The position numbers and the translations under genes are program-made. Positions 21,881-63,174 of a stretch of 64,000 nt of DNA are shown here, piece after piece (positions within the stretch are counted from its first letter, which is position 1; the number at the start of each line of letters is the position of its first letter). Under the pieces are notes generated by a model that saw nothing but the letters and a program-made list of their open reading frames with translations, ran no database searches and had not been told where the DNA came from. Origin of the DNA: Escherichia phage W70; sequence record OP778610. The stretch is one strand, 5' to 3'.

Positions 21881-22072
21881 CCTTCCACTAAGCTGAAATC
21901 ATTTTATCATATTATGAAAAAATACAACAGCGAAGATCGGTCATGAACACTATGTTGTTAATTTTTACAACAGGACTCCAAAAAAGTATTTAAATCACTT
22001 AAATCGATTTTAATACATAGAAAATACCTATGGACCAGATCTGACCCATAGGCTATACCTTAATGTGAAATT

Positions 22073-22651
22073 TTATTCATTTCCCCGATATTTTTGAATT
22101 GCGATCGAAGTCCTTGGTTCAGCCAGTCCAGTTCCATATGCATACCATTTGCCAGTGAGTGTTTTTCGAGCACCGTAGGACCCAATCTCCATGTCGTCAC
22201 AATAAACATCGTAACCGATCGGGGTCTTAACTAAAAAGAGTACATTACGAGGAATCCCTAAGAGGGTAAACATCGATATGGCATCTTTTGCGATCTCGTG
22301 AGAAATCTTCTCTGCATTCTTTTTACTGGTTGCACTTCTAAACAGTTCCATCTTTAAGAAGATATTGAAATGAATATCATCAAGAACCATCTCATCACGG
22401 AAGCATGGGGTCACAGCCATCCAACTGCCATCTTCCAACTTCCCTTCTTTGTCGAGTTGGAGGAATGATTGCTCTGCGGAAGCCACTGCATATTTCCCGT
22501 TCTGGACAATTCGAAGATCAGTAACATCTTCGGGGCATGTATGGTCCATAGCATCATCATCCACATAGCTTGGGACAACCTTATCATTGAAACCTTTACA
22601 TTTCCACCAACTGTGGGCATCAATAAACAATGTGAAGTCGATGTTTGACAT
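22073..22651 (-). CDS. hypothetical protein (192 aa)
   Basis: Start at ATG after AAGCGAGG RBS. Confidence 0.5.
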   Translation of the reverse strand: MSNIDFTLFIDAHSWWKCKGFNDKVVPSYVDDDAMDHTCPEDVTDLRIVQNGKYAVASAEQSFLQLDKEGKLEDGSWMAVTPCFRDEMVLDDIHFNIFLKMELFRSATSKKNAEKISHEIAKDAISMFTLLGIPRNVLFLVKTPIGYDVYCDDMEIGSYGARKTLTGKWYAYGTGLAEPRTSIAIQKYRGNE

Positions 22652-22652
22652 T

Positions 22653-23156
22653 TTAGCCTCGCTTACCATTCTGGAATGCACGTTTAGTAATTTTTGACAT
22701 AACCATCAGGTCTTCTATTGAAGTGCTTGGATGATACTTATTCAGGTAGGCTTCCATAGCACCGACCAGATCAGAAAGCTCTACCAACTCCATGATCTTA
22801 CATTTTTGTTTAGCTGCATCCTTGAGTTCATCAAGTTCTTCTTGAATCTTAGTGATCTCTCCAAGCTCTCCGCGAGGGAAAGTATCCAGATGATAACCAG
22901 GTTTTTGTTCTTCAATACCCTCATGTCCGACAACACGAAATTTTCCGGCAGCGAAACGCCAAACACCTTCAAAATACACAATGTAATGTTCCGACTCTAC
23001 AATGAAGATAGTGTCGAAATTTTTAAATTTAAAAAATCCTTCGACAAGATTATCTTCTGTACTGAAACTTCCTAAGAAGTTGAGTTCTTGCTCCGTATGA
23101 AATTCCATAACCATATTTTCGTTCTGGAGTTTCGTCAGCAATTTTAAAATTTTCAT
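22653..23156 (-). CDS. putative MazG-like NTP pyrophosphohydrolase (T4 gp56-like size)
   Basis: GAGGAG RBS; C-terminal ELGEITKIQEELDELKD..ELVELSDLVGA resembles MazG EExxE/D motifs. Confidence 0.4.
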   Translation of the reverse strand: MKILKLLTKLQNENMVMEFHTEQELNFLGSFSTEDNLVEGFFKFKNFDTIFIVESEHYIVYFEGVWRFAAGKFRVVGHEGIEEQKPGYHLDTFPRGELGEITKIQEELDELKDAAKQKCKIMELVELSDLVGAMEAYLNKYHPSTSIEDLMVMSKITKRAFQNGKRG

Positions 23157-23167
23157 TTTCTCTCCTC

Positions 23168-23656
23168 TTATGGGCAACACCGTGGAGATCTTCCACAGAA
23201 GAATTGCCAATTGGTTTCTGAGTCTTTGTAATTTACAAACCCTATCCTTCCGCACCCTTGTCCACTACAAACAGCCTCACGAGGATGATAGTCTATACTA
23301 CAAGAGTGTGGATGGTCAAATGCTTCTCGTATTTCAACACATAGTCGGCTTAACCAGGCGAACATTTTTGGCATAGAAGCCTCAAGAAGTTTAAGTTCGT
23401 CGATCGTAGGTTTGTCTTTCTCAAGGAAGAAGTCATCTATCTCGGAAAACAAAATAACGTTTTGAACTATCCCGTCAGTTACCTTGTAAGAGAACTCCTC
23501 AGTAAGCCTCACGGTAACTTCCTCTATCAGTTCTTTTTCATTATCTTGATCTTTTGCCAGTCTTTCCTCAATCCATCGGATAATGAAGAATCTTTCTCTC
23601 TGAACATCCATGTTCAAAGTGTTGATTATTTTTTCATAGATTAGGTTTCCTTCCAT
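23168..23656 (-). CDS. hypothetical Cys-rich protein (162 aa)
   Basis: ORF; KPTIDELKLLEASMP motif; C-terminal Cys cluster. Confidence 0.45.
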   Translation of the reverse strand: MEGNLIYEKIINTLNMDVQRERFFIIRWIEERLAKDQDNEKELIEEVTVRLTEEFSYKVTDGIVQNVILFSEIDDFFLEKDKPTIDELKLLEASMPKMFAWLSRLCVEIREAFDHPHSCSIDYHPREAVCSGQGCGRIGFVNYKDSETNWQFFCGRSPRCCP

Positions 23657-24768
23657 ACCTTGTCTTGTGCCTCCAGGATAAGTTTTTCAACAATCTTCAG
23701 ATCTGTTTTCTTTGGTAAGCTCGATTGCTTATAAAGAACATCTGTGATCATTTTATCTTTTTCTTCAGCCCAGTCAACAATTTCTTCATAGCGGTATTCA
23801 CCATTTCGGATTGCGAGGAGTTCTTCAGCGTCTGGTCGATTCACTAAAACTTTACCTTCTGTGAGGATTTCTTCACCCATCCGAAGAAGCCGGACCAAAT
23901 GCATAGCATGTTTAGTGTCGTAACCGAACTTCTCTTCCAGTTCATGACGCTTCTCGTTACGATTCTTAACCCATTCCCAATAGTTGTGGTGTTTCTCCTT
24001 GGCCCATTTATGATCGTCAGCACAATACTTAACAATCATCAGTGTCTTACCTCTTTTAACTTCATCTGGGATTTCTTCATAGTCCAGCTTACGGATAGAA
24101 CCATCTTTGTTAAACATAGGTTCAACATTTTCACGACGATCCTCTACAACGCCGTAAATGTTACTGCCGTAATGAACCAAAGTACAGAAGCCTTCCATGT
24201 TTTTAAATTTACGAACAAAGTCTTCGTACTTCAACTCACCTTCTCCGAGATAGCTCTGCACCAGACGGAAATAGTCAAATTGAGTTGGTGGCTCTTTTGG
24301 TTGCGGATTATTAATGTGTTTGTTGTGACCCTTGATCCGCTTTAACTGAGACATTGCATAACCACTGAAGCGAAATGCAACTTCACGAGACAGTAAGGAG
24401 TAGAAATGTTCTTTCATCTCTTTCCAAGCTTCGTGCTCGTACAATGTGGCTTTCGGATCAGTAAAACCCAGTTCAATGATATTTGGGTTCATCTTCGAAA
24501 ACAGTTGAAGGAAAGTTCCCAATTCGTAGATCTTAGCATCCTCTTCACCAGGGATGTTTAATTCAGTAACCTCTTTGAATGGGGTACGAACCACATTTGG
24601 GGTTGCAACAAAAACCCCACGGATATCAATATCACTACCTTCGTTATTCGTACCATACGCATGAGATCCTGCCAGACTCAACATCAGTACCTTCGCCACG
24701 TCTGGATGATTTTCCATCTTCTCTACGATACTTTTTACCTTTCCAGCACTCACAACTGAATTTTCCAT
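23641..24768 (-). CDS. Pol-beta superfamily nucleotidyltransferase (375 aa)
   Basis: GS-x11-DIDI motif (LSLAGSHAYGTNNEGSDIDIRGVF). Confidence 0.6.
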   Translation of the reverse strand: MENSVVSAGKVKSIVEKMENHPDVAKVLMLSLAGSHAYGTNNEGSDIDIRGVFVATPNVVRTPFKEVTELNIPGEEDAKIYELGTFLQLFSKMNPNIIELGFTDPKATLYEHEAWKEMKEHFYSLLSREVAFRFSGYAMSQLKRIKGHNKHINNPQPKEPPTQFDYFRLVQSYLGEGELKYEDFVRKFKNMEGFCTLVHYGSNIYGVVEDRRENVEPMFNKDGSIRKLDYEEIPDEVKRGKTLMIVKYCADDHKWAKEKHHNYWEWVKNRNEKRHELEEKFGYDTKHAMHLVRLLRMGEEILTEGKVLVNRPDAEELLAIRNGEYRYEEIVDWAEEKDKMITDVLYKQSSLPKKTDLKIVEKLILEAQDKVWKET

Positions 24769-24858
24769 TTATCCTCCAATCATGTAAGTCACACAAGCCA
24801 ACCCAGTTGGCCTGTTTAATCTTTATAAAGTTTACGCAGCTTGTGCAGTCTTTTTTAT

Positions 24859-25254
24859 TTATAGGCATTTCACACCATAAATGATCATCAATACAACAAG
24901 TGTCAGTGTATAGATCAAACTCCCATAAAGTCCATGACTGGTGATTTTAAGCTTTTTCTTAAAGCACATCATTGTACTATAAATTACACCAGTCCAGTGA
25001 ATCACTAAAATCGCGGTGGCAATATCTGAAACATTACCCGCCCAAAGCATCAGAGAGTATGAGAGGTACATTGCAAAACCTGATAGCAGGAATGTAAACA
25101 AATAACCAATTACACTTTTCTTTTTCTGATATACGATTTTATTTTTCATGGTATCGATGTTCAGATTGTAATAGGCAACTGCCACTATCTGGATAATCAG
25201 CCCCAAGATAAAGAAAGAGATCAGTGTAACGTATTCAAAAATTGGTGCAGTCAT
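24859..25254 (-). CDS. hypothetical integral membrane protein (4 predicted TM)
   Basis: Four hydrophobic helices. Confidence 0.5.
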   Translation of the reverse strand: MTAPIFEYVTLISFFILGLIIQIVAVAYYNLNIDTMKNKIVYQKKKSVIGYLFTFLLSGFAMYLSYSLMLWAGNVSDIATAILVIHWTGVIYSTMMCFKKKLKITSHGLYGSLIYTLTLVVLMIIYGVKCL

Positions 25255-25652
25255 TATAATTTCTCCTCAATAATTTCAGAAATGAGATTCGAGATCTCGA
25301 AAGTTTCTAACTCTTCGACGTGTGACAAGCGCTGGAGGCGCTCGATAACAAAGTCTTTCTTCACAAATACATCCGACAAATGCTCAATGTCCTGCTTACC
25401 ACGCATTCCGCTAACCAACTGCTTGTATCGGATGAGTTCAATATACTCCTCTTTAGACATTACTGTCAAGCGTTCATCTGCACAAATATGCAAAAATACT
25501 TGCTTGCTGTCCCAGTCAAATCCTCTGTACACTGCCTCTACTTCACGGCGTGGTGTCCCGCCCAGTGTTACATGACCAACCTCAACAGGGATAGATACCT
25601 GATCATCAGGTCGGCACTGCTGCAACTCCTCAATCAATTCAGAAACTTTCAT
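25254..25652 (-). CDS. hypothetical protein (132 aa)
   Basis: ORF. Confidence 0.5.
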   Translation of the reverse strand: MKVSELIEELQQCRPDDQVSIPVEVGHVTLGGTPRREVEAVYRGFDWDSKQVFLHICADERLTVMSKEEYIELIRYKQLVSGMRGKQDIEHLSDVFVKKDFVIERLQRLSHVEELETFEISNLISEIIEEKL

Positions 25653-25654
25653 AG

Positions 25655-26110
25655 TTACCCCTGCTTAAGCTTGAAAGATTTAAATGCTTCGATAAAGTCC
25701 ATTTCTTTTTGCGTATACTTATGATCGATTGTATCAGCGAAAAGAGGGCAACGACCATCAACCAACTTCACATCCCACAGATGTTGAGGGAGAATAAATG
25801 CAATGGCTGTAAGTGCACCATTCAAAGAATCATTCTCCTCGCAGAAAAATGCGTAAGGAATCTTCTCTATGTTTGGAGCTAAAAATCCTTCTGCAAAATT
25901 AAGCATCTTAGATTGATAGCCTCCGTTCAACAAGATCATTGTTTGGTCTTTGCTTTGCCACTGATCTACAAGGTTGTATCTGTCATCATATCGATCGGCA
26001 TAGGCAAAGCCATAATGACCTACAAGGTTTGCTGCTGCATGTGCTGCTTGGATACCTGCTTGGATTCCCATCATATAGCTGTTTACCAATACGTACATCC
26101 GAGTTTTCAA
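25655..26110 (-). CDS. hypothetical protein, possible Pth2-like peptidyl-tRNA hydrolase fold
   Basis: N-terminal MYVLVN..MGIQAGIQAAHAAANL resembles the Pth2 MGKGKxAAQxxHA region (recalled, weak). Confidence 0.35.
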   Translation of the reverse strand: MKTRMYVLVNSYMMGIQAGIQAAHAAANLVGHYGFAYADRYDDRYNLVDQWQSKDQTMILLNGGYQSKMLNFAEGFLAPNIEKIPYAFFCEENDSLNGALTAIAFILPQHLWDVKLVDGRCPLFADTIDHKYTQKEMDFIEAFKSFKLKQG

Positions 26111-26427
26111 TTCTTACCTCCGAAAATTCTTTTTGCAAATTTTTCATTACCTAACGTCATGTTGTAGAAAACTATAATTGAATAGACAATCCACGCAAGG
26201 ACATAAAATAAAATCAAGAAAGGCCAGCCCACAAACCAAAACACTGTCATTATTAACCAGCCCGTCATAAGGAGTTTATAATTAACATTCCCGTGATTTA
26301 AAGGGTCAAGTAAGTTACTGTTCTCTGGCAGGGTGATACGAAACCCACCTTGACGAAGCTTGATCAAAAAGAACCAAGCAGCAGAACTTATAATGCAACA
26401 TAAAATATATATCAGTAATCCTGTCAT
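26107..26427 (-). CDS. small membrane protein, tandem paralogue A (106 aa)
   Basis: Shares FLIKLRQ.GF.I..P and three TM helices with the next gene. Confidence 0.5.
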   Translation of the reverse strand: MTGLLIYILCCIISSAAWFFLIKLRQGGFRITLPENSNLLDPLNHGNVNYKLLMTGWLIMTVFWFVGWPFLILFYVLAWIVYSIIVFYNMTLGNEKFAKRIFGGKN

Positions 26428-26753
26428 TTTTTAACTCCGAAGATCTTAGATAGTAATTTATCATTCCCGATAGTTACACCACAAAAACTTTTTACTCCGT
26501 ATACTAGATACGACCCGATTGTAACACAGATAATGATCGGATAAACAAGATACCAAAAGAATGTTGCAAGTATCCACCCTGCCATCACCATACGTAAATT
26601 TACATTTTCGTTATTCAGTGGCTCCAGGATATAAATATCCTCACAATCTTTTGGGAAGGGGATGTTGAACCCCTTCTGCCGTAATTTGATCAGTAAGAAC
26701 CAAAGTGGGCAACTAATAAGACAACCTATTAAATAACCTTCAACCATTTTCAC
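26424..26753 (-). CDS. small membrane protein, tandem paralogue B (109 aa)
   Basis: Paralogue of 26107..26427. Confidence 0.5.
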   Translation of the reverse strand: MKMVEGYLIGCLISCPLWFLLIKLRQKGFNIPFPKDCEDIYILEPLNNENVNLRMVMAGWILATFFWYLVYPIIICVTIGSYLVYGVKSFCGVTIGNDKLLSKIFGVKK

Positions 26754-27990
26754 TCTCCTTCAACTTGTCAAGATATTGTGTAACGTATCTTACTTTTACA
26801 TTTCGGATTCTGCTCTTGATCTCATCTGGACGTCCCGCGAATTTTTCAGAAATCTCTTTACTTTCTTTTGAGATTGCAACACTGTTCTGAATAATCCCCG
26901 CCAGTGCTGAGAATAATACCAGTGGTTGACTGTAGTTGTCAAACATTTTTTCAGGTCCACGCCCACGAGCATCACAGATGCAAGCGTCAATAAATTCAGA
27001 GAGGAATGCTTGGTCCTTTTCACCACGTAAGGCTACTAACAAGTCATAAACTTTCTTTGGCTTCATTTCTTTGATACGGTGAAGTCGTGTATGATGCTCA
27101 GTTACAGCTAAAGCCAACTTCTTCCAATTATTGGGGACACCAAAGCGATCACAAACTTGTTCAGTTAACTTGATACCATGTTCTTCGTGACCGTGCAGTT
27201 TACCCGTTAGCCAATAAATACATTTACCTAAGTCGTGACAAAGGACTGCCCACTTCACAGCCTCACTTGCACGAGTCGCCTGGGCATAATCCATGCAAAG
27301 TAAAGTGTGAACAAATGCATCACCTTCAGGATGGTGCTCCTTGGGTTGAACAACATCGTATAAATCCACAAGCTCAGGAAATTCTCCCAGTTGAGTCAAC
27401 ATACGGATCATTACCGAAGGTTTATTCATTTCTGACTGATCACTGAAGCATTTCTTAATCTCTGCAAATTTACGCTCTTTTGGCAATGCACTTAAATCCA
27501 CACTCCGACACATTAGCCAAGTGTCAGGATCAATTGTAAACTCACCGCCGTATCTGGCATGTAATCTGGCTAGTCGGTACACACGTAAAGGGTCTTCGAT
27601 AAATGCTTTAGTGGATACACAACGTAACCGACGAAGTTCAATATCCATTGCACCATTACAAGGGTCGATAATTTCGCCCGTGGAAATATCCTTGGCGATC
27701 GCATTAATGGTTAAATCTCTTCGCATCAGGTCTTGTTCAATTGTAACGTCTGGAGAGAACACAACTTCGAAATCGTGATAACCAGGGCCTGTTGATCTTT
27801 CCGTTCGAGCAAGAGCATACTCTTCTTTAGTGTTCGGTTCAAGGTACACAGGGAAAGCTGCACCAACCTTAGTAAATCCCTTCTCAATCATTTCTTCATG
27901 GGTCGCTCCAACTACAACGTAGTCACGATCCTTGCTTTCAACACTCATTAGTTCATCGCGAACTGCACCACCTACCAAGTAAACTTTCAT
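26740..27990 (-). CDS. cca: CCA tRNA nucleotidyltransferase with HD domain
   Basis: MKVYLVGGAVRD..DRDYVVVG head motif; HDLGK HD motif; close to recalled E. coli Cca. Confidence 0.9.
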   Translation of the reverse strand: MKVYLVGGAVRDELMSVESKDRDYVVVGATHEEMIEKGFTKVGAAFPVYLEPNTKEEYALARTERSTGPGYHDFEVVFSPDVTIEQDLMRRDLTINAIAKDISTGEIIDPCNGAMDIELRRLRCVSTKAFIEDPLRVYRLARLHARYGGEFTIDPDTWLMCRSVDLSALPKERKFAEIKKCFSDQSEMNKPSVMIRMLTQLGEFPELVDLYDVVQPKEHHPEGDAFVHTLLCMDYAQATRASEAVKWAVLCHDLGKCIYWLTGKLHGHEEHGIKLTEQVCDRFGVPNNWKKLALAVTEHHTRLHRIKEMKPKKVYDLLVALRGEKDQAFLSEFIDACICDARGRGPEKMFDNYSQPLVLFSALAGIIQNSVAISKESKEISEKFAGRPDEIKSRIRNVKVRYVTQYLDKLKESENG

Positions 27991-28028: not shown

Positions 28029-28193
28029 TCATAGCCATCCCCTTTCTTTATACCCTTTTGTAAATCCTGATTCCCAATCTTGAAATTGCTCCGGCATGGT
28101 GTTTGGATTATACGGGTTGTTTCTCTTGAACATCCCAAACTTGAATCCAGCGGCTCGGCCCTTCTCGTATGCTGAACTGCTTTTTCTTGTCAT
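28029..28193 (-). CDS. hypothetical small basic protein (54 aa)
   Basis: Start at ATG after AAGAGGAGAA RBS. Confidence 0.4.
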   Translation of the reverse strand: MTRKSSSAYEKGRAAGFKFGMFKRNNPYNPNTMPEQFQDWESGFTKGYKERGWL

Positions 28194-28519
28194 ACTCTTT
28201 CTCCTCTTAAATTTAAAGACCAATCTTTTATTTCTTCTTTCCAGTTCGTATTTCTCTTAATGTCTTGCTTTTGACCGCGAAGATAGTTAATGATCTCAAG
28301 CGGGTCTTGCTTAACAAAAGAAATATTGTCGATCGGGCACTCAACTAACTTAAGCATCCTTTCAAAACGATTATACTCATCTTCTGATTTCGGTGCAACA
28401 GGAATAACATCATAATCTTCAAGATTGTCGAGAGTTTCAAGGGTAACCCTCATCTCGTAGCCTTCTAATCTCTTTGTCTTGATACCAAACACTCTTCGAA
28501 AGTAAATGTAATATTTCAT
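28190..28519 (-). CDS. hypothetical protein (109 aa)
   Basis: ORF. Confidence 0.5.
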   Translation of the reverse strand: MKYYIYFRRVFGIKTKRLEGYEMRVTLETLDNLEDYDVIPVAPKSEDEYNRFERMLKLVECPIDNISFVKQDPLEIINYLRGQKQDIKRNTNWKEEIKDWSLNLRGERV

Positions 28520-28572
28520 TATGTTCTCCTACTTAATGATCATCATTATACACATCCCTGAATTCAAGTCAA

Positions 28573-28600
28573 CAAAAAAGGCCACCCGAAGGTGACCTTT
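28573..28600 (-). terminator. rho-independent terminator (minus strand)
   Basis: GGTCACC-loop-GGTGGCC hairpin plus T-run. Confidence 0.55.
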
Positions 28601-53969: not shown

Positions 53970-54707
53970 TTACATACCCTCCAGGTTTGCTTCAAAATAA
54001 GTGATTGGCTTCATGATCTTGCCATTCTTATCTTTAAATACTACACGATCCATACCATCACCACCTTTTACGATGCTTCCCTTTACACCTTGATAACGGT
54101 TACGGTTACGCAGTTCAATCTGTTCAGCTTCCAAACGCAACATGGCATCAATATCAAAATCAGCTTCTGCAAAAAAGTAATACGTCTTGTAGAAACATTC
54201 CGTAAATTCTTTCACGGTTGGGATCTTGGAATCATTTGAATCCAAAACCTCATTTAAAGCACGACGAGCATTAAAGTTGGAGTTCTGCATGATTGCAACA
54301 ACCGCCATAACGATCCCGTTTGTATTGTCACTCTCGATAAATTGATCAAGAGTTCGATAAAGCGAAGTCAGATTATACGTACCAACATTGTCAGCAGGAC
54401 AGATGTTTTCAGAACCACCTTTCAGGAAGTTGTAATATGATCCAACTACAAACAGGTCGCAAAGTGCATCTATGATTTCCTTACGATTCTTTTTAGTTAA
54501 ACCAAGATCATAAAGTTCATTGTACTCTTCCATAACAAGAGTTTTTTGGAATTTTGAAACATCTTCAGAGAAGTCATGAAAACCACGAGCAACAAAATTC
54601 CAATTTTTTACTCGCTCTGCTGCTTCCCGAAAGAAGCTATTGCCCTTAACATCAATCATCTCGGAAATAAAGGTTTTTTGATCAGTACTCAATTCTTTGT
54701 ATTTCAA
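53970..54707 (-). CDS. hypothetical protein (245 aa)
   Basis: ORF. Confidence 0.5.
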   Translation of the reverse strand: MKYKELSTDQKTFISEMIDVKGNSFFREAAERVKNWNFVARGFHDFSEDVSKFQKTLVMEEYNELYDLGLTKKNRKEIIDALCDLFVVGSYYNFLKGGSENICPADNVGTYNLTSLYRTLDQFIESDNTNGIVMAVVAIMQNSNFNARRALNEVLDSNDSKIPTVKEFTECFYKTYYFFAEADFDIDAMLRLEAEQIELRNRNRYQGVKGSIVKGGDGMDRVVFKDKNGKIMKPITYFEANLEGM

Positions 54708-55224: not shown

Positions 55225-56592
55225 TTAAACCTCCTCTGCAATTTTACGAAGAAGATCCAGAAGAGAGTTCGATGCTTCGATCACTTCTTCCAGGCTGTTG
55301 GCTACGCTCTTATCAAAGCGAAGTTCAACAAACTTATAATTTAAACGAGGCAAAAACAGAGATTTCAGATCTTTGTTCTCTGCATCAGTAATGTCATTAG
55401 CCTTGATCGTAATAATCTGCCCAATGAAATACTCACTCGGTTTTTTACGAAGAGCATCAGTAAGTCCAGACCCTGCACCAACTTCAAGAAGTCCATCACG
55501 AGTACGGCAGATCAGAGATCCAATAAGCCCAGGCTTCTTTTTGTGAGGCGTTGTCGCCACAACTTCAAGATCAACATCGAACTCATTTTTAAGTTTGATC
55601 CCTTTCTTAGTTTTGTTATCTCCCCAAGGCATATTCGCTTCTTTAAGAACCGTACCCTCTTTCTTCTGCAAACGCATTTCGATAAAGTGGTCAATAGCCT
55701 CTTTAAGACTGCCAATCTGACGACCACGGATCATCTGGAAATGAGAAGACTCATCAACATAGTTGACAATATTTTCAACCTGCTTACGACGGTCTTTATA
55801 TTTTTTCTTGGATTTACGTGCGATATACTCGTCCATAGAAACAACATCCCAAACAACCAAACGTACCAGATTAGGATCAATGTTTTCAGGATCTTGGTTA
55901 AGATATCCGTTACCGATCTCTCGTGGTTGAACCCCGTGCGGGTATGACAGGTCAATAACTAAACCTTCCCCGTGCATAACAAAAGGACCATCAGAATTGG
56001 CTTTTTCTTTCAGGTTTTGCTCAAGTGAAGGAATACACCGGAAATTAAGCTCTTTCCCTGATCGTGAACGATAAATGATCTGCTCAGGCCAAACCATAAT
56101 GTCTGCATAAAGTCCGTCCATCTTCTCGTCGGAGAAAGCACCCTCGTAGTTGAAATTACGAAGGAGATCCTCTTTGAAAAGGGTGTAGCTCTGGTAAGGA
56201 GGCTCTGTAACCAGATCCTTCCAAACCTTGTTGGTCAGAGTTGTCTGGATACCACACTCAAGATCGCGGTTAATGATCTTCAGCAGTGTTTCTGGTTCTT
56301 CGCACAGTTGAACAGCATTCGTGAGAACATCACGGGCTTCATGCCCAGTATACATACGACTTGCAACATCGTTGACGATAAGATCAATACTCTCTTGCAG
56401 ATTCCGATTCCCTTGGTGGAAAGTTGCAGGATCAACCTTAAAACTGCGAACAAAGAAGTTTAACTCTTTGCTGTATGCAACCCGAAATACTTCACGCAGG
56501 CCATCATTGTCCGCATGGCTACGTAAGATCGCTTCTTTTTCTTTTGTTGATCCGGTTGCTGCCAGTTGTTCGATAATCTTAGTTACGCTCAT
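55225..56592 (-). CDS. ATP-dependent DNA ligase (T4 gp30-like)
   Basis: KxDG motif EKMDGLYADI; N-terminus GSTKEKEAIL and RDLECG match recalled T4 ligase. Confidence 0.9.
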   Translation of the reverse strand: MSVTKIIEQLAATGSTKEKEAILRSHADNDGLREVFRVAYSKELNFFVRSFKVDPATFHQGNRNLQESIDLIVNDVASRMYTGHEARDVLTNAVQLCEEPETLLKIINRDLECGIQTTLTNKVWKDLVTEPPYQSYTLFKEDLLRNFNYEGAFSDEKMDGLYADIMVWPEQIIYRSRSGKELNFRCIPSLEQNLKEKANSDGPFVMHGEGLVIDLSYPHGVQPREIGNGYLNQDPENIDPNLVRLVVWDVVSMDEYIARKSKKKYKDRRKQVENIVNYVDESSHFQMIRGRQIGSLKEAIDHFIEMRLQKKEGTVLKEANMPWGDNKTKKGIKLKNEFDVDLEVVATTPHKKKPGLIGSLICRTRDGLLEVGAGSGLTDALRKKPSEYFIGQIITIKANDITDAENKDLKSLFLPRLNYKFVELRFDKSVANSLEEVIEASNSLLDLLRKIAEEV

Positions 56593-61315: not shown

Positions 61316-61394
61316 GCGGGTGTATCTCAACGGTCTTCTAAACCGTCGTTAATCGAGTAATTGGAGTATGAAGGTTCGAGTCCTTCCTCCCGCG
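61316..61394 (+). ncRNA. tRNA-like element (noncanonical; possible pseudo-tRNA or stable RNA)
   Basis: Canonical T-arm GAAGG-TTCGAGT-CCTTC and 7-bp acceptor-like helix with one mismatch; anticodon-like hairpin with loop CTTCTAA (TCT); no clean D-arm. Confidence 0.4.
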
Positions 61395-61413: not shown

Positions 61414-61485
61414 GGCCCTGTAGCTGGACGGTTCAAGCAAGCGACTCATAATCGCCAGACGGTGGTTCGATTCCACCCAGGGCCA
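61414..61485 (+). tRNA. tRNA with anticodon CAT (Met or Ile2)
   Basis: Acceptor GGCCCTG/CAGGGCC, T-arm GGTGG-TTCGATT-CCACC, loop CTCATAA, CCA encoded. Confidence 0.8.
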
Positions 61486-61621
61486 CCATACAAAGTCGGG
61501 TAGCTCCCGATAAGTCGTCGGACTGATGTTCCCTGACTATGAGTTCTCTCAACGATAACGACGTAGATCACAGCAGAAACGGCGCACCCTATTATATTTC
61601 TTAATACATTTCAATAAGTTC

Positions 61622-61650
61622 TTGACATAATCCTATTATACTGCTAATAT
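61622..61650 (+). promoter_or_regulatory. sigma70-like promoter (TTGACA-17-TAATAT)
   Basis: Hexamers upstream of ORF 61678. Confidence 0.5.
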
Positions 61651-61677
61651 AGATATATCGACTGAATTGAGGTGTTT

Positions 61678-62052
61678 ATGGCTAAAGCTGAAATCGTTAC
61701 TCGAAAACGCGGTCGGCCTACTACAGAGGAAAGCATTGCAATCAATACTGAGAGAGCAATTCTTCATGCTCGTTCCGAGTTTGCAAGACTTACTCCTCAA
61801 GCAATTAAAACTCTGGAAGGTCTACTGACTTCCGGTACAGAGAAAGTTAAAGAAACTACTGCGAAGTATATTCTTGAGCAAGCTGAAAAGGCAAACAATC
61901 TGTACACAATGGAAGATAATGAAGAGGATCTGGCAGGAGGAACTACTTCTGCAAATTCAGAAACTCATCAAGGCCCTTCTGATGCATTTAAAGATGCTAT
62001 CCCATTAACTACTCAGATTCGTGAGTATAAAATGGCAGAAGGTGAAGATTAA
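61678..62052 (+). CDS. hypothetical protein with AT-hook-like KRGRP motif
   Basis: ATG after GAGGTG RBS; RKRGRPTT. Confidence 0.5.
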   Translation: MAKAEIVTRKRGRPTTEESIAINTERAILHARSEFARLTPQAIKTLEGLLTSGTEKVKETTAKYILEQAEKANNLYTMEDNEEDLAGGTTSANSETHQGPSDAFKDAIPLTTQIREYKMAEGED

Positions 62053-62075
62053 GGCTCGCAAGGGCCTTTATTAAG
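62052..62075 (+). terminator. terminator-like hairpin with GCAA tetraloop
   Basis: AGGCTC-GCAA-GGGCCT followed by T-rich tract. Confidence 0.45.
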
Positions 62076-62297
62076 AAGTTTTCTTTAAGGTAGTTCTTAC
62101 TTTAGCAGAGTAAATCTTCGGCAAGTGGCGGTAACCACTTTACCGATACCTCATAGTCAGTGCTGCAAACACTGGCTACCTTAAAGAGAATTTAACTCGT
62201 CGAATAAGGAAGATGCTGATCTCAAAGTGAGGTCACTTACCGCAAGGGGTGTGCATAGACTCCCGCTTCCGAATAGACTATGTGGCGAGATGTATTT

Positions 62298-62376
62298 GGG
62301 GACGTGGCAGAGCGGTCGAATGCGCCTGACTGTAAATCAGGTATCCCACACGGTGGTTCGAATCCATCCGGCCCCA
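62298..62376 (+). tRNA. tRNA-Tyr (anticodon GTA)
   Basis: AC arm CCTGA-CTGTAAA-TCAGG; T-arm GGTGG-TTCGAAT-CCATC; acceptor with one A-G mismatch; CCA encoded. Confidence 0.7.
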
Positions 62377-62382
62377 CCAAAT

Positions 62383-62455
62383 TTTCCGTTAGGCTTACAG
62401 GATAAGATTCCCACAACATATCGTTGTGATACTGGTTCGAATCCAGTACGGAAAC
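62383..62455 (+). ncRNA. tRNA-like element (noncanonical anticodon arm)
   Basis: Perfect acceptor TTTCCGT/ACGGAAA and T-arm ACTGG-TTCGAAT-CCAGT; internal hairpin CACAAC-ATATC-GTTGTG. Confidence 0.45.
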
Positions 62456-62582
62456 CAAATTAAGCCGTGATGTGATGTAATCACTGACCTCTTTGAAGGA
62501 TCATGGCATTTTATACAAAAACCTGAATAATTTAGGTTTTAATTCCTGGGGTTCGTAGCCCTATTACTAAGAGGACTTAACT

Positions 62583-62792
62583 ATGTTTACTATTAAAATT
62601 ATTGATATCGATGGAAATGAGACTGGTGTTTCAACAAGGCACTATAGATGGTACTCAAAAATGAATATTTTTGATCTGGAGGGTGGTGAATCTGTTTCTG
62701 TACCACCAAAAAGTCGTGCTTATGTAATGAATGACAAAGGAATAACCATCGGTAGATACACAAATACAGCGGATCAACGCGTTCTTAATTAA
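62583..62792 (+). CDS. hypothetical protein (69 aa) inside tRNA cluster
   Basis: ORF with AAGAGGA RBS. Confidence 0.5.
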   Translation: MFTIKIIDIDGNETGVSTRHYRWYSKMNIFDLEGGESVSVPPKSRAYVMNDKGITIGRYTNTADQRVLN

Positions 62793-62793
62793 A

Positions 62794-62865
<72 letters not shown>

Positions 62866-62966
62866 CCAAACCTCTATCCATCTGACGCGTTTATGGGGTT
62901 GACCTGATCACTCTTCTCCTAATCTCGTGTGAAGACACCATGATTGTTGGGATGGATAAACTTCTT

Positions 62967-63038
62967 TTGGGGATTAGCCAAGCGGTAAGGCATCGGATTT
63001 TGATTCCGACATTCACTGGTTCGATTCCAGTATCCCCA
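62967..63038 (+). tRNA. tRNA-Gln (anticodon TTG)
   Basis: Acceptor TGGGGAT/ATCCCCA (U1-A72); AC arm TCGGA-TTTTGAT-TCCGA; T-arm ACTGG-TTCGATT-CCAGT. Confidence 0.9.
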
Positions 63039-63046
63039 GCCAATTA

Positions 63047-63121
<75 letters not shown>

Positions 63122-63174
63122 CCAATTTACCCTCATATAATAACAATAATATAATCTCCTCTCCTTCGCCTCAG

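Follow-up and report, generated by a model that had tools for sequence, protein, structure and literature searches.

Introduction

The known answers of phages to immunity that targets transfer RNA (tRNA) are the supply of replacement tRNAs and anticodon-loop repair with the help of a ligase, the latter typified by the Pnkp and Rnl1 enzymes of phage T4. The present work deals with a gene cluster that probably keeps the acceptor ends of tRNAs usable during infection and that combines a CCA-adding enzyme, a nucleotidyltransferase (NTase) of the RlaP family, and a protein folded like Pth2, a peptidyl-tRNA hydrolase. The cluster lies on the minus strand of a 64,000-nucleotide (nt) stretch of DNA from Escherichia phage W70 (OP778610), referred to below as the window. 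The window is 100% identical to Escherichia phage A73 (OP778609.1; Vequintavirinae) and corresponds to the last 64 kb of the A73 record, so that all genome-wide scans for open reading frames (ORFs) and tRNA genes refer to the A73 genome. A close relative of A73 is classified in the genus Septuagintavirus.

The three protein families have been met in phages before. In the survey by Iyer et al. 2021 (PMC7824862), RlaP, the CCA-adding enzyme, and PTH2 are included among the RNA-repair and ribosome-rescue genes of jumbo phages; there they are treated separately, RlaP is tied to ligases, and its distribution in jumbo phages mirrors that of the ligases. The name of RlaP itself comes from an association with RNA ligases (PMC12776372; PMC7824862). 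In a December 2025 preprint (PMC12776372), two Pseudomonas RlaP enzymes (PfRlaP and PaRlaP) have been reported to add 1-2 nucleotides to the 3′-OH of RNA with little specificity for the nucleoside triphosphate; they are inactive on DNA and protein and prefer mimics of cleaved or damaged tRNA. NrdC.11 of T4 belongs to the same family (PMC12776372). In phage genome papers, the CCA gene receives no more than a passing mention. As regards attack on the tRNA tail, a 2026 study of Cas12a3 has reported that viral tRNAs offer no way around cleavage of the universal CCA tail, and phage counter-measures are unknown according to its authors (PMC12851939).

The cluster described here would share with T4 tRNA repair and with the jumbo-phage repertoire the purpose of restoring tRNAs damaged in conflict. 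Unlike T4, no kinase-phosphatase or RNA ligase was detected in the A73 ORFs scanned, and the cluster would act on the 3′ tail, whereas the T4 system acts on the anticodon loop. The components are known, but the linked cluster appears to be undescribed: within limited literature coverage, no description was found of a neighborhood of CCA, Pth2-fold, and RlaP genes or of a ligase-independent role of RlaP, and this neighborhood is not reported in the accessible portion of Iyer et al. 2021 (PMC7824862). A preliminary description of the window, which had regarded the combined module as not described, has thus to be narrowed to the linkage, as each of the three parts is already listed for phage RNA repair in that survey and GenBank names the genes.

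The CCA-Adding Enzyme and the Phage tRNA Genes

The CCA-adding enzyme (26740..27990, minus strand) is a class II enzyme whose C-terminus carries an HD phosphohydrolase domain, as in the Cca type of E. coli, and counts 416-432 amino acids (aa) depending on the start. Three starts are possible, at 27990, at 28032 (the GenBank start, overlapping the stop codon of the upstream ORF as ATGA), and at 28038. The head of the protein matches PolyA_pol (PF01743) with an expect value (E) of 3e-19 and 70 bits against a cut-off of 23, and the HD domain matches PF01966 (E 1e-8, 35.4 bits against a cut-off of 22); weak cross-matches to Cas3-HD models are consistent with the latter. Further matches are to phrog_2244 (E 7e-132) and to the NCBIfam model NF008137, “multifunctional CCA addition/repair protein” (E 5e-114, 381 bits). 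These results confirm the CCA-adding enzyme with HD domain of the preliminary description, although the score lies under the NF008137 equivalog cut-off of 451 bits and the protein is a homolog rather than a certified equivalog.

Class II CCA enzymes are characterized by the motifs GGxVRD followed by DxD (motif A), RRD (motif B), and EDxxR (motif D), and the phage translation shows GGAVRD, DRD, RRD (within RRDLTIN), and EDPLR. In E. coli Cca, the HD domain takes off a 2′,3′-cyclic phosphate or a 3′-phosphate, and the NTase head rebuilds C74-C75-A76. The phage enzyme has both this set of motifs and the same two-domain architecture, its residues 17-423 aligning to profile positions 1-404. In contrast to E. 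coli Cca, it represents a divergent phage lineage (phrog_2244) below the equivalog cut-off, whose activity and nucleotide specificity are predicted.

Five phage tRNA genes (Met, Tyr, Gly, Gln, and Pro), called by ARAGORN at 61414..63124 on the plus strand, are possible substrates. They are located outside the operon, about 33 kb from the enzyme cluster, and no further tRNA genes were found in the rest of the A73 genome. The “phage tRNA set” invoked in the preliminary description does therefore exist, but at a distance, and it is accompanied by a sixth, aberrant tRNA-like sequence (61316..61394, plus strand) that scores 35.8 bits in Rfam, above the gathering score, and is not called by ARAGORN. 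This sequence has a D-arm of about 4 nt, a long variable region, the anticodon loop CUUCUAA, and no encoded CCA. Conversely, CCA is encoded in all of the five standard genes, which favors a service of the CCA enzyme in repair rather than in maturation, as in E. coli; maturation of the five standard phage tRNAs was rejected as the reason for the CCA gene on the same ground.

The RlaP-Family Nucleotidyltransferase

The second enzyme (23641..24768, minus strand; 375 aa) had been presented as an orphan nucleotidyltransferase of the Pol-beta type. The type is correct, as both the GS...DxD motif and a match to the RlaP model PF10127 are present. The protein is, by its sequence, a clear member of the RlaP family and not an orphan: the PF10127 match has an E of 7e-19 and 68.9 bits against a cut-off of 23, there are 5,115 homologs, and the family is partly characterized. 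PF10127 is found on nearly all of the best 120 of these 5,115 homologs, and the protein also matches phrog_388 (E 8e-79). G34, S35, D46, and D48 of the Pol-beta motif are invariant in 27 sequences. Extension of RNA 3′-OH ends has been shown for the Pseudomonas members of the family only (PMC12776372) and is predicted for the phage protein. The PF10127 model is matched by its N-terminal half only (positions 9-140 of 249). Comparison with PDB chains, both by single sequence and by profile, gave only a marginal match to MntA, and the structure of PfRlaP was not among the matches.

Like PfRlaP, PaRlaP, and T4 NrdC.11, the phage protein stands well above the Pfam threshold and carries the GS...DxD motif. 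Unlike them, it has no neighboring RNA ligase and none detected in the ORFs scanned, and its neighbors are the CCA enzyme and the Pth2-fold protein instead of RtcB/RtcA or Pnkp. Pfam and PHROG scans of selected larger A73 ORFs, not exhaustive below about 170 aa or outside the window, brought up no RNA ligase, RtcB, or Pnkp. The sole ligase met in these scans is an ATP-dependent DNA ligase (55225..56592).

The Pth2-Fold Protein

The third protein (25655..26110, minus strand; 151 aa) belongs to a large family that is found almost only in viruses (phrog_3668, “hydrolase”); in sequence records it is named “peptidyl-tRNA hydrolase” in GenBank (phage PcCB7V) and “hydrolase” in RefSeq. Its N-terminus had been said to resemble the active-site region of Pth2. 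The match to Pfam PTH2 (PF01981) has an E of 0.011, and the link to Pth2 came solely from a fold search. An AlphaFold2 model built on 30 homologs (predicted local distance difference test, pLDDT, 91.3; predicted template modeling score, pTM, 0.87) shows the alpha/beta fold of Pth2, and the second-best structural match of this model is 2gax, a protein without assigned function.

Five Pth2 sequences were taken from PDB alignments, aligned, and compared with the phage family profile by hhalign. The resulting alignment sets GIQAAHA against AAQVAHA and brings the conserved Trp residues together, and it was used only to place Q21, H24, and W51. The residues Q21, H24, E91, and T101 are strictly invariant in 189 family members. 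By hhalign, at a probability of 21%, Q21 and H24 fall at the Pth2-invariant positions of the AAQxxHA helix, and the spacing suggests that E91 (Glu for Asp; Sso D86) and T101 match the Pth2-invariant DAG...T residues. K18 of Sso Pth2, the lysine of GKGK, is reportedly catalytic (Fromant et al. 2005). The lysine position is not kept in the phage family, and the chemistry or the substrate may therefore differ from those of Pth2.

In comparison with Pth2 (PF01981; 1wn2, 1xty, 1q7s), the phage protein is about 14% identical and below the Pfam threshold, and it possesses a C-terminal extension of about 40 residues; in its family, Gln or His replaces the GKGK lysine and Glu replaces Asp. Whereas Pth2 is archaeal and eukaryotic, the phage family is nearly virus-restricted. 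Among 1.84 billion clusters, 2,506 representatives reach E ≤ 1e-3; the family occurs in 113 phage records and 61 IMG/VR loci, and a pattern-based scan of 185,579 species genomes met it in cells in two metagenome-assembled contigs (L152, L153). The resemblance pointed out in the preliminary description accordingly holds for the modeled fold and may extend to the invariant Q21 and H24, but does not hold for the Pfam PTH2 threshold or for the lysine, which is Gln or His. As judged from the model, the protein is a relative of Pth2 in fold, its pocket being conserved in part, and not a certified Pth2; it is predicted to hydrolyze esters on the tRNA 3′ end.

The Gene Neighborhood in Other Phages

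The order of a CCA gene, one or more membrane proteins, the Pth2-fold gene, and, further on, RlaP is kept in Vequintavirinae, namely, in Certrevirus (CR9 and PcCB7V), in Seunavirus (PVP-SE1), and in Acinetobacter phage ABPH49, with protein identities of 40-65%. Within this subfamily alone, the shared order could be inherited synteny. In Rheinheimera phage Barba19A (Barbavirus, 85 kb), CCA, Pth2-fold, and RlaP (PF10127) genes are consecutive, the first two joined by a 4-nt overlap and the last two separated by a 9-nt gap. In Vibrio phage TDDLMA (196 kb), the CCA gene abuts the Pth2-fold gene downstream of it, and a Rnl1-type ligase is encoded 3 kb away; the same abutment occurs in one uncultured phage group. 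Barba19A and TDDLMA, both outside the subfamily, argue for a linkage that goes further than common descent.

For a broader comparison, 66 Pth2-fold loci outside A73 and UPEC06 (L005-L071) were reduced to 47 groups at 70% identity, and their neighbors within 7 kb were clustered. A CCA gene is found near the Pth2-fold gene in 10 of the 47 groups, in 8 of them as the next gene upstream in the same orientation, and the CCA enzyme is the commonest neighbor save a ClpP-like protease. Thg1 (PF04446), which is the tRNA-His guanylyltransferase, a 3′-5′ polymerase that repairs the 5′ ends of tRNAs, is found near the Pth2-fold gene in 8 further groups, often at a distance of 200 bp or less. These are uncultured-phage loci from IMG/VR (L020, L022, L027, L024, L029, L037, L051, and L060), frequently with PhoH nearby. 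RlaP occurs in 5 groups and kinase/phosphoesterase-type proteins in 7, so that at least one of CCA, Thg1, RlaP, and kinase/phosphoesterase is present in 23 of the 47. For comparison, of 50,697 phage records, 487 contain a CCA gene and 445 an RlaP gene. The clustering of CCA, Pth2-fold, and RlaP genes is more than chance.

The Predicted Transcription Unit and Its Other Genes

About 12 minus-strand genes, from about 28.57 to 22.03 kb, probably form a single co-directional and co-transcribed unit, as judged from their arrangement: from 28519 to 22073 they overlap or abut, and the sole real gap is one of 90 nt upstream of RlaP. The genes named in the preliminary description (CCA/HD, two membrane proteins, the Pth2-like protein, a 4-TM protein, and the NTase) were all recovered on this strand, at or near the positions it gave. 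A terminator-like hairpin (28600..28577, minus strand), made of a 10-bp stem followed by a T-run, lies directly before a promoter-like site (28572..28545, minus strand) at which the unit is predicted to start. This site consists of TTGACT, a 16-nt spacer, and TATAAT, with 11 of 12 hexamer matches, and is a consensus match only. The same applies to a second terminator-like hairpin (22053..22026, minus strand; 12-bp stem and T-rich tail), which is the predicted end of the unit.

The genes that accompany the three enzymes are likewise on the minus strand. The first gene of the unit (28190..28519) encodes a 109-aa protein to which no function is assigned; it is retained by Certrevirus phages, upstream of CCA, and has homologs in loci L005, L007, L011, and L012. 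It is followed by a small ORF (28029..28223; 54 aa in GenBank), whose stop codon is the one that overlaps the GenBank start of the CCA gene. Between the CCA and Pth2-fold genes are those of two small membrane proteins with hydrophobic segments (26424..26753, phrog_17692, and 26107..26427), which had been taken for duplicates and are indeed paralogs, with 41% identity (E 2e-30). Two genes separate the Pth2-fold gene from RlaP, one for a 132-aa protein without assigned function (25254..25652; phrog_12566), kept at this place in Certrevirus phages and in phage ABPH49, and one for the 4-TM protein, a hydrophobic membrane protein of 131 aa (24859..25254; phrog_12739). The intergenic gap of 90 nt (24769..24858) contains a hairpin of 10 bp and, ahead of the RlaP start, a GGAGG ribosome-binding site; the folding of the hairpin is not significantly better than that of shuffled sequence (z -1.56). 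An ORF of 74 aa that spans the gap (24644..24868, minus strand) was treated as spurious and is probably no gene, since it overlaps the RlaP start, has no family match in Pfam or PHROG, and is unannotated in GenBank.

Three genes follow RlaP. The first encodes a 162-aa protein with a Cys-rich C-terminus and no assigned function (23168..23656; phrog_12113). The second encodes a protein with a MazG/PRA-PH-like C-terminal domain (22653..23156), whose match to Pfam PRA-PH is weak (E 0.05) and that to phrog_6408 has an E of 1e-35; its counterpart in phage PcCB7V is annotated as a pyrophosphatase. A second MazG-like pyrophosphohydrolase-related protein is encoded elsewhere in the window (53970..54707, minus strand; phrog_671/715). 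The last gene of the unit (22073..22651; 192 aa) encodes a stand-alone, minimal catalytic core of a class II aminoacyl-tRNA synthetase (aaRS), closest to seryl-tRNA synthetase (SerRS). It shows the class II core fold with motif 2 (fRxE) and motif 3 (GxGxGxxR). All of its 192 aa are taken up by the core, with no coiled-coil arm, tRNA-binding domain, or anticodon-binding domain, and it scores below every NCBIfam and Pfam family threshold. The wider neighborhood also contains genes for Dam, a ClpP-like protease, PhoH, and ribonucleotide reductase. At a distance from the cluster, a tandem array of three consecutive paralogs of 380-414 aa with RCC1-like beta-propeller repeats (PF25390, PF13540) occupies 12219..15717 on the minus strand.

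Proposed Role in tRNA 3′-End Repair

Given that no RNA ligase was found in the A73 ORFs scanned and that CCA is encoded in the five tRNA genes, ligase-independent repair and clearing of 3′ ends is the best reading of the cluster. It is considered somewhat probable that the enzymatic core maintains or repairs tRNA acceptor (3′) ends without a ligase. In such a scheme, the HD domain of the Cca-type enzyme would heal 2′,3′-cyclic or 3′-phosphate ends, and its NTase head would restore C74-C75-A76. To tRNAs trimmed past CCA, for instance by loss of the discriminator base, RlaP would supply 1-2 nucleotides; the tRNAs so extended would become substrates of CCA addition again, a loss that the CCA enzyme alone could not repair. 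The Pth2-fold protein would cut an ester-linked peptidyl, N-acyl-aminoacyl, or aminoacyl group off the terminal ribose, and blocked or damaged tRNAs would thereby be freed for repair and recharging. A ligase would not be needed because the lesion would be at an end and not inside a loop. The gain for the phage would be that translation is sustained while the 3′ ends of tRNAs are eroded or attacked. The functions of the families are those shown or cited above, and their joint action and their roles in this phage are what we infer from them. The tRNA 3′-end repair or protection module of the preliminary description is in this way partly supported, by the family assignments, by the operon-like packing, and by the recurrent adjacency in independent lineages.

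Several observations weigh against a joint role in 3′-end repair. The ligase search was confined to selected larger A73 ORFs, and RlaP has so far been linked to ligase-dependent repair of the anticodon loop and not to repair of the 3′ tail. Promoter-like sites are not enriched in the region (33 versus 26 ± 6 in shuffled sequence). As for the Pth2-fold protein, it remains under the PTH2 gathering score (16.4 versus 23 bits), and neither its single sequence nor a 30-sequence profile retrieved Pth2 chains or anything relevant from the PDB chains. The hhalign comparison of the phage family with the five Pth2 sequences reached a probability of only 21%, and Q17 stands where Pth2 has its invariant lysine (of 189 family members, 163 have Gln at this place, 22 have His, and 3 have Ala). 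Furthermore, no tRNA-end enzyme occurs within 7 kb of the Pth2-fold gene in 24 of the 47 groups. Among the CCA-adjacent groups, five belong to Vequintavirinae and are hence not independent, which leaves the pairing of CCA and Pth2-fold genes in about 4-5 independent lineages. Finally, three Vequintavirinae-like loci from IMG/VR (L073-L075) keep CCA, RlaP, and the aaRS-like gene without a Pth2-fold gene, whereas L012 keeps CCA, Pth2-fold, and the aaRS-like gene without RlaP. The three genes are thus gained and lost separately, and the parts can work alone.

This last point bears directly on an alternative in which each enzyme separately raises the translation capacity, with no joint pathway, and proximity results from a shared region and timing. 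The roles would then be turnover of the CCA end, recycling of peptidyl-tRNA after drop-off, and a general activity on RNA 3′ ends. Besides the separate gain and loss among relatives, such independent housekeeping agrees with the phage genome papers, in which tRNA nucleotidyltransferase and peptidyl-tRNA hydrolase are listed as generic translation-related genes, and with the presence of neighbors of unrelated function (Dam, the ClpP-like protease, PhoH, and ribonucleotide reductase). It accounts poorly, however, for the overlapping adjacency from CCA through Pth2-fold to RlaP in the unrelated 85-kb phage Barba19A and for the abutment of CCA and Pth2-fold genes in the Vibrio phage and in the uncultured group. 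Thg1, the alternative partner of the Pth2-fold gene, also acts on the acceptor end. Independent housekeeping is held to be unlikely.

A specific counter-defense, by which the module would reverse an immune or toxin attack on the tRNA tail, is a sharper version of ligase-free 3′-end repair and does not oppose it. The attacks meant are CCA-tail cleavage of the Cas12a3 type, tail extension by MenT/AbiEii, 3′-pyrophosphorylation by toxSAS of the CapRel type, and acetylation of aminoacyl-tRNA by GNAT toxins. The statement of the Cas12a3 authors that viral tRNAs cannot evade attack on the CCA tail (PMC12851939) speaks in its favor. So does the fact that a lost discriminator base is beyond the CCA enzyme alone, while RlaP extends a 3′-OH by 1-2 untemplated nucleotides; the same is true of the near-confinement of the Pth2-fold family to viruses, with 2 cellular loci as compared to the 61 loci and 113 phage records given above. 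Conversely, a tail-targeting defense in the hosts of these phages is a supposition, and the idea is inferential throughout. The operon proteins have no anti-defense match, and PADLOC returned nothing for them except the HD/Cas3-HD cross-matches; a reading of the cluster as a defense, toxin-antitoxin, or MNT-HEPN system was dropped for want of PADLOC support. RlaP, moreover, has little nucleotide specificity, and restoring the correct discriminator base would therefore be inefficient. Counter-defense in this general sense is doubtful. It is more doubtful still that the CCA/HD enzyme, RlaP, and the Pth2-fold protein constitute a complete tail-rebuilding pathway countering attack on the NCCA end by immune nucleases or toxins (Cas12a3-type and similar). 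In that pathway, the Pth2-fold protein would strip the acyl or peptidyl group, the HD domain would heal the phosphate, RlaP would replace the discriminator, and the CCA enzyme would complete the tail.

A further possibility concerns the Pth2-fold protein, which may not act on tRNA at all if the fold is reused for another ester or amide substrate or belongs to a non-catalytic binder. The unconserved lysine position, the want of a significant sequence match to Pth2, the unassigned function of 2gax, and the 24 locus groups without a nearby tRNA enzyme would all fit this possibility. It is nonetheless considered distinctly improbable, given four strictly invariant polar residues at Pth2-invariant positions (E91 and T101 by spacing) and given that the commonest enzymatic neighbors are two different polymerases of the tRNA acceptor end, the CCA enzyme and Thg1.

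The least probable alternative is the classical role of RlaP in anticodon-loop repair, with an unrecognized phage ligase or the host RtcB and with merely incidental proximity to the CCA and Pth2-fold genes: the naming of the family for its RNA-ligase association and its ligase-like distribution in jumbo phages (PMC7824862), the presence of RtcB in E. coli (PMC12776372), and the Rnl1-type ligase 3 kb from the CCA/Pth2-fold pair of TDDLMA point to it, but no RNA ligase, Pnkp, or RtcB is among the A73 ORFs scanned, the products of RlaP end in a 3′-OH that is incompatible with RtcB (PMC12776372), and in Barba19A 9 nt separate RlaP from the Pth2-fold gene in a 10-kb locus where no ligase is annotated.

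Significance

Immunity that targets tRNA is a fast-growing field, and the conserved cluster of CCA, RlaP, and Pth2-fold genes offers a concrete and cloneable candidate for the phage answer to CCA-tail cleavage. The hypothesis of ligase-free 3′-end repair is specific, is backed by comparative genomics across lineages, and is directly testable against tail-targeting immunity. If the parts act independently, the finding shrinks to an improved annotation of Vequintavirinae genes that assist translation. If the hypothesis is true, RlaP would gain a ligase-free role, and a function would be assigned to a Pth2-fold family of more than 2,500 clusters that passes no Pfam model.

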